Shown: in pieces, positions 7,718 through 13,172 of the stretch
How the letters are laid out: every line of letters starts with the position of its first letter
How positions within the stretch are numbered: the first letter of the stretch is position 1
DNA from: a virus
DNA length: 13,224 nucleotides
Virus genome (UHGV): UHGV-0142834
Direction: 5' to 3' (one strand)
Translations under genes and position numbers: made by a program
Notes under the pieces: generated by a model
Databases searched by the model: none
Seen by the model: the letters and a program-made list of their open reading frames with translations, nothing else
Told to the model about the DNA's origin: nothing

Positions 7718-8341
7718 CTATGCGGCCTCGGAAGGAAGTCCAATCATCTTATTCAAATCTTCTACCCGTAAAGCAGGAAGTGCTGTACTTGCTTTATCTG
7801 CTTCTTTTGGTAGCAATTCTTTGCTTTCAGGCCAAACTTCAATAAGTCGCTTAACTGTTGTGACTGAGTTCAAAGCACCCCATACATTTGATTCGATATC
7901 CTTTTTCAAGGCTTCAAGGTTTTGTTGCAATGCGCAGATTTCATCAAACCTTTTTGTTATTTCGTGTTCTGCGTCAAACATGCACTTATCTTTGGTTGGA
8001 GTAGGGAGAAATATATCTTCGCCATTGCCGTCTTTCCCATATGAATGCCATCCAACCCTTCTGCCAGATACAGTCAGATAAATTGAAGTAGAACGAAAAT
8101 CGTATGAGTAAAATGAACATCCCATCTTTTCAAGTTCTTCACTTATAGCTACCAACTTGGATGATAACTGATCCACTTCCTCAGTTTTCTTTTTACCGCC
8201 AAACGCAATAACTCTGGCGTCAAGTGCAAGCTGGTTCTTTAACTTTGTTACTTCTTCAAGTTCAGTGAAAACCCCAGACTTAATTAAAGCGTTACGAGCG
8301 ATTTCCTCTTTCATTCTCGTAGTTAAGCGGATTGATGACAT
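7718..8341 (-). CDS. Hypothetical protein (207 aa), accessory cassette gene 1
   Basis: Start placed at the ATG 8341..8339 (MSSIRLTTRMKEE..) preceded by GAGAGG with a 7-nt spacer; the track's longer ORF would overlap the end of N. Coiled-coil-like N-terminal half; no motif I recognise. Confidence 0.65.
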   Translation of the reverse strand: MSSIRLTTRMKEEIARNALIKSGVFTELEEVTKLKNQLALDARVIAFGGKKKTEEVDQLSSKLVAISEELEKMGCSFYSYDFRSTSIYLTVSGRRVGWHSYGKDGNGEDIFLPTPTKDKCMFDAEHEITKRFDEICALQQNLEALKKDIESNVWGALNSVTTVKRLIEVWPESKELLPKEADKASTALPALRVEDLNKMIGLPSEAA

Positions 8342-8352
8342 ATTAATTCCTC

Positions 8353-8679
8353 TCAAATAAGTGGTTTGCTGCCTAATTTCATTTTCTGGCGACCAACACA
8401 AGTCACACCCATTTCACTGCGTGGCTTGCTGTACCATGTGCGCTGATTCTTGCGCTCAATACGTTGCAGGTTGCTTTCAATCTGTTCGTGGTATTCAGCC
8501 AGCACCGTAAGGTCTATCGGATTCAGTGCGCTTTCTACTCGTGATTTCGGTTTGCGATTCAGCGAGAGAATAGGGCGGTTAACTGGTTTTGCGCTTACCC
8601 CAACCAACAGGGGATTTGCTGCTTTCCATTGAGCCTGTTTCTCTGCGCGACGTTCGCGGCGGCGTGTTTGTGCATCCAT
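8353..8679 (-). CDS. N: Antitermination protein N (lambda N-like)
   Basis: Start at the ATG 8679..8677 with AGGAG at a 7-nt spacer. MDAQTRRRERRAEKQAQWKAANPLLVGVSAKPVNRPILSLNRKPKSRVESALNPIDLTVLAEYH.. matches the lambda N arginine-rich motif and most of the protein as I recall it; the C-terminus diverges. Confidence 0.9.
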   Translation of the reverse strand: MDAQTRRRERRAEKQAQWKAANPLLVGVSAKPVNRPILSLNRKPKSRVESALNPIDLTVLAEYHEQIESNLQRIERKNQRTWYSKPRSEMGVTCVGRQKMKLGSKPLI

Positions 8680-8851
8680 CTGGATTCTCCTGTCAGTTAG
8701 CTTTGGTGGTGTGGTAGGTGGGAGACCCATTTCGACCTGCTTCGGCCGACTTCAATTCGGCAATAGTTCCGCAGGCCTCGCCGCTTTACGTGCGACATAT
8801 TCCCATCCATGAACCCTTCACCACACCCCAAAGCCTTCTGCTTTGAATGCT

Positions 8852-10829: not shown

Positions 10830-10991
10830 ATGACAAAACGTCGTAAGAAATACCAGGAAAAAGAAGAGATTCGACACCCTGATTCACCTGAGGGATTAGT
10901 GGTAGCCGCAGCAAATAACAGGGCGTTCGCAGAGCGCCTTGTTGGTGTTTACAGACTAGCCAAAGCAGGAGTGAAACATGGGCGTCGTTAA
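10830..10991 (+). CDS. Possible small basic ORF (53 aa) between cII and O
   Basis: Hand-translated: [57 protein letters not shown] at a 6-nt spacer before the ATG. Overlaps the O start by 14 nt and the proposed pO -10, so it may be non-coding. Confidence 0.25.
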   Translation: MTKRRKKYQEKEEIRHPDSPEGLVVAAANNRAFAERLVGVYRLAKAGVKHGRR

Positions 10992-11799
10992 GTTAGCTGA
11001 TTACAGGCCTCAACTGGAGGTCGTGGAGCATCGCGTGGCAGATACCGAAGATGGTTTCATGCGCGTTGCTAACGAGATTACTGACAGTCTGCTGATGGCT
11101 GATTTAACCGTCCGGCAGTTGAAGGTGATGCTCGCTATCATGCGCAAGACATACGGATTCAATAAGCCGATGGATCGACTCACAAACACGCAGATAGCAG
11201 CCATGACAGGTATTCATCACACTCATGTTTGCGCTGCCAAGCGCCAGCTTATCGAGCGTAAATTCCTCATTGCTGATGGCGTGAAAATCGGAGTGAACAA
11301 GGTGGTTTCTCAGTGGATTAGCCAGGACAGCTTAACATTAGCTAAAACAGCTAATAAAACATTAGCCAAGTCGGCTAATGGGTATAAGCCAAGTCAGCTA
11401 AACACAAAAGACAATATACAAAAGACAATAAATACAAATACCCCCTTACCCCCTAACGGGGGTGGCGATGGGCAGGTTAAACCTGAACGTCGCAAGGCAG
11501 AACGAATCGACTACGAATCCTTCCTGAACGCCTACAACACCGAAGTCGGTGACAGACTGCCACACGCTGTTGCGGTCAACGAGAAACGCAAACGCCGCCT
11601 GAAGAAAATCATCCCGCAACTGAAAACGCCAAACGTGGACGGTTTCAGAGCGTATGTCAGGGCGTTTGTGCATCAGGCCAAGCCGTTTTACTTCGGAGAC
11701 AACGACACGGGCTGGACAGCTGATTTTGATTACCTGCTGAGGGAAGATTCGTTAACGGGAGTACGGGAAGGGAAGTTTGCAGACAGGGGGATTGCATGA
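10978..11799 (+). CDS. O: Replication initiation protein, lambda O-like N-terminal domain
   Basis: 273 aa, ATG at 10978 with AGGAG at a 7-nt spacer. [53 protein letters not shown] parallels lambda O N-domain ..ADLTKRQFKVLLAILRKTYGWNKPMDRITDSQLSEIT. Contains internal iterons. Confidence 0.85.
11318..11445. repeat. Candidate replication origin: four 17-18 bp iterons with internal dyad symmetry followed by an A-rich tract, inside the O gene
   Basis: ttagccaggacagcttaa (11318..11335), ttagctaaaacagctaa (11338..11354), ttagccaagtcggctaa (11362..11378), taagccaagtcagctaa (11385..11401), then acacaaaagacaatatacaaaagacaataaatacaaata. Same layout as ori-lambda within O. Confidence 0.6.
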
Positions 11800-13172
11800 A
11801 ACAGGATATCGAAGCGAGCGTTATCGGTGGCCTGCTGATTGGTGGATTAACACCAACTGCCAGTGACGTTCTGGCAACGCTTGAGCCGGAAGCGTTTTCA
11901 ATTCCGCTCTACCGGAAAGCCTTCGAGGTTATCCGCAAGCAGGCGCGAAACAGAAATTTAATCGACGCGCTGATGGTTGCCGAGGCGTGCGGAGAGGAGC
12001 ATTTCACGTCAATCCTGATGACCAGCAAAAACTGCCCGAGTTCCGCAAACCTGAAGGGATATGCCGGAATGGTCGCGGATAACTATCACCGCCGTCTGGT
12101 GCTGGAAATCATGGATGAAATGCGTGAACCAATTCAGAGCGGAACCATCGACGCATCGAGTCAGGCGATGGATGAACTTGTAAAGCGTCTTTCAGCCATC
12201 AGAAAGCCCCGTGACGAGGTTAAACCTGTACGGTTAGGGGAAATCATAACTGACTACACTGACATGCTTGACAGGCGTCTGAGGAACGGAGAAGAGTCAG
12301 ATACCCTGAAGACCGGAATCGAAGAACTTGATGCTATCACCGGAGGGATGAACGCGGAAGACCTGGTGATAATAGCTGCTCGTCCTGGTATGGGGAAAAC
12401 CGAACTGGCGCTGAAGATTGCCGAAGGCGTTGCAAGCCGTGTTATTCCTGGTTCTGACGTCCGGCGCGGAGTGTTGATTTTCTCGATGGAAATGAGCGCA
12501 TTGCAGATTGCAGAGCGAAGCATTGCCAACGCCGGGAGGATGTCGGTTAGCGTGCTACGAAATCCTGCATCGATGGATGACGAAGGCTGGGCGCGCGTTG
12601 CTAACGGCATGAATCAGCTTGCGGATTTGGATGTATGGGTAGTCGATGCATCGCGGTTATCGGTCGAAGAAATACGCTCAATCGCAGAACGGCACAAACA
12701 GGAAAATCCAAACCTGTCACTCATCATGGCGGATTATCTTGGCCTGATTGAGAAGCCGAAAGCAGACCGCAACGACCTCGCAATTGCTCACATCTCAGGA
12801 AGCCTTAAGGCGATGGCGAAAGACCTGAAAACGCCTGTTATCTCCCTAAGTCAGCTTTCGCGCGATGTTGAGAAGCGACCAAACAAACGCCCGACAAACG
12901 CAGATTTGCGTGATTCAGGAAGCATTGAACAGGACGCAGACTCAATCATCATGCTCTATAGGGAAGCGGTATATGACGAGAACAGTAGCGCCGCGCCATT
13001 TGCTGAAATCATCGTGACGAAAAACCGTTTTGGCTCGCTTGGTACGGTTTACCAGCGGTTCTGCAACGGACACTTTGTTGCATGTGACCAGGATGAAGCC
13101 AGACAGATTTGCACAGCATCAAATGCACCCGCTGCACGTGGCAGGCGATATGCACAAGGGGCTGACGTATGA
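11796..13172 (+). CDS. Replicative DNA helicase, DnaB family (phage-encoded)
   Basis: 458 aa. The ATG overlaps the O stop (ATGA). Walker A context [18 protein letters not shown]. Downstream DnaB-like motifs ([38 protein letters not shown]). Confidence 0.9.

Follow-up and report, generated by a model that had tools for sequence, protein, structure and literature searches.

Replication of bacteriophage lambda begins at an origin situated in the middle of gene O, where a series of iterons and an AT-rich tract support the formation of a nucleoprotein complex known as the O-some (PMC7466680). In phage P22 the corresponding gene, 18, contains four repeats of about 20 bp which are unlike those of lambda (PMC8022706), while lambda-type origins with six iterons are found in the Shiga toxin (Stx) phages 933W and P27 (PMC7466680). 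The element considered here lies in a 13,224-nt stretch of viral DNA from UHGV virus genome UHGV-0142834, referred to throughout as the window. Inside its O gene, four repeats with the consensus TTAGCY-N5-RGCTAA are followed directly by an A-rich tract. This element is very probably the replication origin of the phage—a theta-type origin on the plan of ori-lambda, belonging to an HK97-type lambdoid prophage.

The annotated O-binding iterons of lambda start at positions 39034, 39054, 39078 and 39101 of its genome, giving start-to-start spacings of 20, 24 and 23 nt. The same spacing, 20/24/23, is found among the repeats in the annotated rep_origin of P22 gene 18, and again among the four repeats of the window. 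The array starts at nt 340 of the gene in the window and at nt 349 in lambda, in the same frame. An original prediction, made from the letters of the window, had described the locus as having the same layout as ori-lambda with a different repeat sequence, and both statements hold: spacing, gene position, frame and A-rich motif all match, while the half-sites of the repeats are distinct.

Window: left half-site TTAGC, right half-site GCTAA
Lambda: left half-site ATCCCTC, right half-site GAGGGA
P22: left half-site TTTACC, right half-site GGTAAA

Four iterons within the O gene

The repeats are embedded in an open reading frame (ORF) that matches the Pfam family Phage_rep_O (PF04492) over residues 19–113 (E 6e-33), in agreement with its earlier designation as an O gene. 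They begin at codon 114, right after the matched domain.

10978–11799, + strand: O gene, replication initiator of the HK97 gp54 type, 273 aa; contains the predicted origin
11032–11316, + strand: N-terminal winged-helix DNA-binding domain of O, aa 19–113 (Pfam match and AlphaFold2 model)
11318–11334: iteron 1, TTAGCCAGGACAGCTTA; imperfect dyad, first T at codon position 2
11338–11354: iteron 2, TTAGCTAAAACAGCTAA; good dyad, first T at codon position 1, codes LAKTAN
11362–11378: iteron 3, TTAGCCAAGTCGGCTAA; perfect 6+6 dyad, first T at codon position 1, codes LAKSAN
11385–11401: iteron 4, TAAGCCAAGTCAGCTAA; imperfect dyad, first T at codon position 3

The four are direct repeats of 17–18 nt (11317/8–11334, 11337/8–11354, 11361/2–11378 and 11384/5–11401), and the array spans 11318–11401. 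It is unique in the window and far beyond chance. A search of all 13,224 bases for TTAGCCAAGTCAGCTAA at up to three mismatches returned four matches, all of them in the array, where 0.05 were expected; four matches were reached in none of 200 shuffles. The degenerate pattern TWAGCYNNNNNRGCTWA led to the same four sites against an expectation of 0.29. A motif-blind search, in which the best-matching four 18-mers were sought at intervals of anywhere from 19 to 25, gave a score of 86 out of a possible 108 at 11317, compared with a maximum of 58 in the 85 other blocks of the window and, likewise, a maximum of 58 in 300 shuffles of 11250–11500. The motif-blind search found no comparable second array in the 13.2-kb window. 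The description of the locus as four spaced repeats of 17–18 nt is thus confirmed by searches with and without the consensus.

The repeats had also been described as each internally palindromic, which is true of two of them. Repeats 2 and 3 are good dyads and, as single-stranded DNA (ssDNA), form hairpins of 7–8 bp with folding energies of -4.6 and -7.6 kcal/mol (z -4.2 and -7.1, respectively). In repeats 1 and 4 the two half-sites agree at only four of six positions.

Constraint on the repeats acts on the DNA

Related loci were collected from public viral contigs by means of an N-domain alignment (80 loci) and from annotated phage records (seven loci: P22, lambda, HK97 and phages of Klebsiella, Cronobacter, Providencia and Yersinia). 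In 72 of the 77 distinct loci among these, the motif-blind search recovered the 20/24/23 spacing, and 70 of the 72—all except lambda and P22—have TTAGC...GCTAA repeats.

The four copies in the window sit in three reading frames, the first T falling at codon positions 2, 1, 1 and 3, and the peptides they encode are ISQDSL, LAKTAN, LAKSAN and KPSQLN. Conservation among the relatives follows the dyad: half-site positions 1–5 and 13–17 are 97–100% conserved in repeats 2 and 3, whatever their codon position, and mostly 97–100% conserved in repeats 1 and 4 as well (lowest value 39%), while the repeat centres (positions 6–12) vary freely. Synonymous codons within the half-sites are effectively frozen. 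Across 18 non-redundant relatives with a median N-domain identity of 71%, Leu at the start of repeats 2 and 3 is encoded by TTA 35 times out of 36 (12% elsewhere in the same ORFs), and Ala in the right half-site by GCT 36 times out of 36 (31% elsewhere). In the N-domain, which served as a control, just 3 of 57 columns with a conserved residue use a single codon, and the mean share of the majority codon is 0.61.

Selection on the repeats therefore acts at the level of the DNA and not of the protein: the use of three frames, the conservation that tracks the dyad and the frozen synonymous codons together make the peptide repeat a consequence of the DNA repeat. The original prediction had named a single competing explanation, a coding-constrained duplication, and the frames, the conservation pattern and the codon data reject it.

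The A-rich tract and the neighbouring inverted repeat

Two further elements lie to the right of the iterons.

11402–11440: A-rich tract, presumed DNA-unwinding element; 20% GC, AT-skew +0.69
11448–11463: inverted repeat ACCCCC-TAAC-GGGGGT, rich in GC and lying beyond the A-rich tract; codes for a Pro/Gly linker

The A-rich tract noted after the repeats is present directly beyond repeat 4, where the GC content at 11400–11439 is 20% and the AT-skew of +0.69 reflects an excess of A on the + strand. A 14-nt tandem repeat, ACAAAAGACAATA(T/A), occupies 11404–11431 within it. In the first 40 nt past iteron 4 the A+T content is 78% in the window and 75% in lambda, and an A-rich tract lies 3' of the iterons in every relative.

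The tract is conserved in sequence, beyond mere composition. Directly past iteron 4, ACACAAAAGA is common to the window, lambda, P22 and 17 of 18 diverged TTAGC-type relatives, and the longer motif ACACAAAAGA...CAAAAGA is found in the window, lambda and P22 alike (spans compared: window 11401–11457; P22 locus 1508–1564; lambda locus approximately 820–860). The match between P22 DNA and the window begins only at 11394. In 30-column blocks, the aligned block from 11410 is 100% identical between the two and the next, from 11440, is 90% identical, compared with 40–83%, and mostly 50–70%, for the remaining blocks of the O gene. This conservation suggests either a sequence-specific role or a patch of homology used in recombination. 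In the former case, ACACAAAAGA...CAAAAGA may be a site, serving all specificity types, for ssDNA binding by O or for entry of the helicase.

A CCCCC...GGGGG element stands at the position of the inverted repeat in P22 and in most relatives. The hairpin predicted for 11448–11463, at -6.3 kcal/mol, is not significant when compared with shuffled sequence (z -1.4). The inverted repeat occupies the place at which lambda has a palindrome of its own.

Origin specificity and the N-terminal domain of O

A short segment of the N-terminal domain differs between the window, lambda and P22 along with the half-sites.

11212–11226, + strand: codons for I79-H80-H81-T82-H83, where the predicted recognition helix begins; candidate determinant of iteron specificity

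The segment reads IHHTH in the window, LPVKR in lambda and MAPTK in P22. A longer stretch around it is common to all O proteins with TTAGC iterons; in its place P22 has TGMAPTKCSTAK and lambda TKLPVKRCNEAK. An AlphaFold2 model of the N-domain, built from an alignment of 29 sequences, has a mean predicted local distance difference test score (pLDDT) of 77, with values of 84–93 over aa 31–110. Helices at 45–61, 70–77 and 81–93 and a beta-hairpin at 97–106 together make up a winged helix, and the HHTH residues (80–83) fall at the N-terminal start of helix 81–93, the third, or recognition, helix. A single-sequence AlphaFold2 model of the same domain was discarded (pLDDT 40). Comparison with the Protein Data Bank (PDB) using Foldseek returned winged-helix DNA-binding proteins only—of the MarR, CRP and IclR families and the N-domain of DnaD—at weak scores (best E 3e-3, template modelling score 0.4–0.5) which support the fold class alone. 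A sequence search of the PDB with the O protein gave no match at E ≤ 1, and a search with an N-domain profile gave one meaningless match (E 1.2); there appears to be no solved structure of an O N-domain.

Iteron type and recognition segment vary together among the relatives, as the original prediction proposed should be checked, and one lineage separates the segment from the remainder of the domain. In the lineage of loci L077 and L078, the N-domain core is 59–61% identical to that of P22 and 46–49% identical to that of the window. Despite this closeness to P22, these proteins carry KHHTH and their genes have TTAGC...GCTAA iterons.

L077 and L088: array at nt 350–514 of the O gene
L078–L085: array at nt 353–436 of the O gene

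The lineage looks like a natural swap of origin specificity, and the comparison suggests that iteron type goes with the short recognition segment and not with how similar the proteins are overall. The TTAGC half-sites are probably recognised by IHHTH, where the recognition helix begins. The sequences thus lend support to the distinct O-origin specificity that had been proposed for this locus. A more far-reaching version, in which specificity is set largely by four or five residues (IHHTH for TTAGC, MAPTK for TTTACC and LPVKR for ATCCCTC) and the L077/L078 lineage is a natural swap on a P22-like scaffold, is put forward tentatively, with the balance tilted somewhat against it.

Modular organisation of the replication region

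The O gene is followed, with a short overlap, by a helicase gene.

11796–13172, + strand: DnaB-type replicative helicase gene of the P22 gene 12/HK97 gp55 type (Pfam)

Its product matches the Pfam DnaB_C domain (E 9e-78) and the DnaB N-domain (E 4e-13), and the homologues in HK97, Nil2 and phage 2851 are annotated as a DnaB analogue or replicative helicase. The helicase is presumed to be the partner of the C-terminal domain of O. The window O protein is 51% identical to P22 gp18 over 259 aa, a full-length match which includes the C-terminal half; homology to lambda O is confined to aa 17–149, a span that takes in the N-domain and the A-rich tract.

The same N-domain and TTAGC iterons are paired with a DnaB-type helicase at most loci and with a lambda-P-type loader at others, namely Cronobacter phage phiES15 (L006) and L086 (Pfam Phage_lambda_P, E 1e-62 and 1e-35, respectively). 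The C-terminal half of O changes with the downstream partner gene, and C-terminal halves of the window type cluster with those of P22. The sequences compared thus point to a modular pairing between the C-terminal half of O and the gene that follows. This switching fits the established division of labour in lambda O: recognition of the origin belongs to the N-terminal half, recruitment of the helicase system to the C-terminal half (lambda model in PMC7466680). When lambda carries P22 orf48-18-12, the resulting hybrid is spared the inhibition that targets ori-lambda, and it grows on the dnaB-GrpD55 host, where a phage with lambda replication functions (rep-lambda) gives essentially no burst at low multiplicity (PMC3349717).

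The number of iterons ranges from four to seven among the relatives, with five in L006, six in L044 and L045 and seven in L077 and L088. Additional copies enter the array on its upstream side; next to the A-rich tract, the last two intervals remain 24 and 23.

Two relatives depart from the usual gene structure. In L047, the downstream gene from position 2310 (aa ~215 onwards) reads as the P-loop GARPKMGK followed by AQPLNSRILLADGSW..., and its DnaB_C match runs no further than residue 222; an intein seems to have been inserted at the Walker A site of the helicase. In L007 (Providencia phage PSTCR7lys), the O gene (1153–2325, 390 aa) carries an insertion of approximately 120 aa between the linker encoded by the A-rich tract and the P22-like C-terminal domain.

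Genomic context

Upstream of O lie cII, a cro-like gene and a gene for an S24 repressor; further left are N, a gene with an Nmad5 domain, RecT, Ea22-like genes and an integrase. By its gene content the window comprises three parts of a mosaic lambdoid prophage, namely its left arm, its immunity region and its replication region. The mosaic character is also apparent when the whole window is compared with phage records, of which no single one covers more than 46%.

The O gene itself is closely matched in known phages, with DNA identities of 98.7–99.3% to HK97, HK446, mEp213, Nil2 and the Stx phages 1717 and 2851. Compared with the HK97 record AF069529 the gene is 98.7% identical, and the region 11250–11500 is 99.6% identical; the O protein differs from HK97 gp54 at one amino acid, and the four repeats are the same base for base. 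HK97, HK446 and mEp213, which carry this gene with its repeats at ~99% identity, are deposited as complete phage genomes. Among 5,426 complete E. coli genomes, 441 (~8%) contain the origin segment.

A 53-aa ORF at 10830–10991 (+ strand), whose last 14 nt are shared with the beginning of O, is without a Pfam match and stands at the position of HK97 gp53, Nil2 ORF53 and P22 orf48, conserved beside the replication module. On the opposite strand, the ORF at 7718–8401 (227 aa) matches Pfam Nmad5, nucleotide modification associated domain 5 (E 3e-70). It lies directly downstream of the N gene (8353–8730, - strand), which it overlaps as called.

A model for initiation and its alternatives

Lambda relies on its P protein to bring in the host helicase, DnaB. 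In the model proposed for the window, the N-terminal winged-helix domains of phage O dimers would attach to the four TTAGCY-N5-RGCTAA iterons. The resulting O-some would strain and open the adjoining A-rich tract, and the C-terminal domain of O would then recruit the DnaB-type helicase encoded by the phage itself in the next gene. Rightward transcription from the immunity region would cross the site, as in lambda. Sequence analysis carries the argument as far as the repeats, their geometry and position, selection on the DNA, the apparent association between iteron and recognition segment and the modularity of the locus; binding by O, unwinding, helicase recruitment and origin firing we infer from homology with lambda and P22.

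Several points weigh against this reading or against parts of it. Neither O binding nor origin firing was found for this sequence in the accessible literature, and the searchable literature yielded no description or test of TTAGC iterons or of an HK97-type origin (Backhaus & Petri 1984 and Juhala et al. 2000 are known by citation only). The three records inspected, those of HK97, Nil2 and phage 2851, carry no origin or repeat annotation. The rep_origin of P22 is annotated as 'similar to phage lambda', and hence cannot count as experimental evidence of its own. Dyad symmetry is poor in repeats 1 and 4, which fold no better than shuffled sequence. The codon counts come from related, and so non-independent, sequences, with the matched N-domain columns as their sole control. 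The swap of specificity concerns one lineage with two representatives, and the placement of IHHTH rests on a model of mean pLDDT 77 that has no close solved relative.

Three other explanations of the repeats have been considered. The least credible, to which we give next to no weight, is that they are a duplicated coding segment, a reiterated linker peptide (TLAKTAN/KTLAKSAN) between the two domains of O that is kept for the sake of the protein. The region is indeed a low-complexity linker joining two domains, repeats 2 and 3 share a frame and encode LAKTAN and LAKSAN, and similar peptides recur among the relatives. However, repeats 1 and 4 use the other two frames and encode the unrelated ISQDSL and KPSQLN; conservation fixes the half-sites and leaves the centre variable, without regard to codon structure; and the near-invariance of TTA and GCT stands out against a better-conserved N-domain in which single-codon columns are rare. 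Lambda and P22, moreover, retain the geometry but encode entirely different peptides. The frame and codon analysis contradicts this explanation, and it was rejected. Only slightly more credible, and still most improbable, is that the segment is mainly a recombination joint between a module of N-domain plus iterons and one of C-domain plus helicase, with the A-rich island as a patch of homology. The blocks of 100% (from 11410) and 90% (from 11440) identity to P22, in a gene that is otherwise 40–83% identical, are what such a joint would leave, and the same N-domain and iterons do occur with differing C-terminal halves and downstream genes. A joint is nevertheless compatible with an origin and is no replacement for it: the opening motif of the tract is kept even in lambda and with all C-domain types, which points to function and not to recent exchange, and the four iterons are left unexplained.

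It is also very unlikely, if a little less so, that the repeats are genuine protein-binding sites used for regulation while the true origin lies elsewhere. The roles that might be proposed include autoregulation of O or pausing, copy control or incompatibility by titration, and service as the target or trigger of a host defence. Plasmid iterons also work in copy control; ori-lambda iterons borne on a plasmid inhibit rep-lambda phages (PMC3349717); and the palindromic iterons of ori-lambda are reported to be both the binding site and the trigger of the defence protein OLD, to which HK97 is sensitive (bioRxiv 10.64898/2026.07.10.737580). In every studied case, however, these are secondary uses of an origin and not alternatives to one. 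The conserved A-rich tract, a geometry and position identical with those of the proven lambda origin, and a linked helicase or loader gene all characterise a site of initiation, and the 13.2-kb window contains no other repeat array. The regulatory and the joint explanations each account for a part of the data; neither covers the full lambda-like architecture.

Significance

Iterons and an AT-rich tract inside O are the textbook lambdoid layout, a kind of element already known, and this particular sequence is that of HK97; it is present exactly in HK97 and in many Stx-converting and Salmonella phages. What goes beyond the original prediction is the freezing of synonymous codons, the association of IHHTH with TTAGC together with the swap lineage, and the A-rich element shared across specificities. 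The coordinates given here could supply the origin annotation missing from the HK97, Nil2 and phage 2851 records. TTAGC iterons together with IHHTH offer a simple sequence rule by which prophages could be grouped according to replication specificity or incompatibility, which is relevant to the biology of Stx phages. Palindromic iterons of phage origins have been reported as triggers of the OLD and Lamassu defences, and the positions of those of the HK97 type should be useful in that regard. If four or five residues do set specificity, origin specificity would be predictable from sequence and could be re-engineered.

Comparison with known replication origins

The closest counterparts of the element are the HK97 gp54/gp55 region and its copies in HK446, mEp213, Nil2, 1717 and 2851. 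With a near-identical O gene and identical repeats these are the same element, and there is no difference of substance between them and the window.

Ori-lambda shares the general plan. In both, the origin lies inside a Phage_rep_O gene right after the N-domain and consists of four dyad repeats of 17–18 nt in the 20/24/23 arrangement and the same reading-frame register; in both, an A-rich tract to the right opens with ACACAAAAGA...CAAAAGA, and an inverted repeat lies further right. A lambdoid array of this kind is taken to comprise at least four iterons of 18–19 bp with an internal dyad, about two helical turns apart. The window has the location in the gene after the N-domain, the four-iteron array, the AT-rich region and the maintenance at the DNA level that go with a lambdoid O-type origin. 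It differs from lambda in its half-sites, TTAGC/GCTAA instead of ATCCCTC/GAGGGA, and in its N-domain, where the core is 43% identical and the recognition segment differs. The C-terminal half of the window O protein is unrelated to that of lambda, and the next gene encodes a DnaB-type helicase instead of the P loader.

The origin of P22 (rep_origin 32840–32984, BK000583) resembles the window in the order of its genes—a small ORF, an O-like gene and a DnaB-type helicase (gene 12)—as well as in the 20/24/23 geometry, the A-rich and CCCCC...GGGGG blocks and the full-length homology of O. The module is of the P22 gene 18/12 type, a gp18-like C-terminal half being followed by the gene for a DnaB-type helicase. 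The origin specificity is not that of P22: P22 has TTTACC...GGTAAA iterons, shares only 40% identity with the window in the N-domain core, and reads MAPTK in the segment where the window has IHHTH. These differences in iterons and N-domain mark the window as a distinct origin specificity joined to a P22-like helicase-recruiting half.

The Stx phages 933W and P27, with their six-iteron lambda-type origins, parallel the varying iteron number seen among the relatives of the window. They retain the lambda iteron sequence and the P loader, whereas the window combines four iterons of a different sequence with a helicase of the DnaB type. More distant are the iteron origins of theta plasmids, in which a winged-helix initiator (RepA, RepE or pi) likewise acts on direct repeats beside an AT-rich element. 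No sequence relationship was detected, and the fold search gave generic winged-helix matches. In the theta plasmids, unlike the window, the iterons lie outside the initiator gene and are usually accompanied by DnaA boxes.

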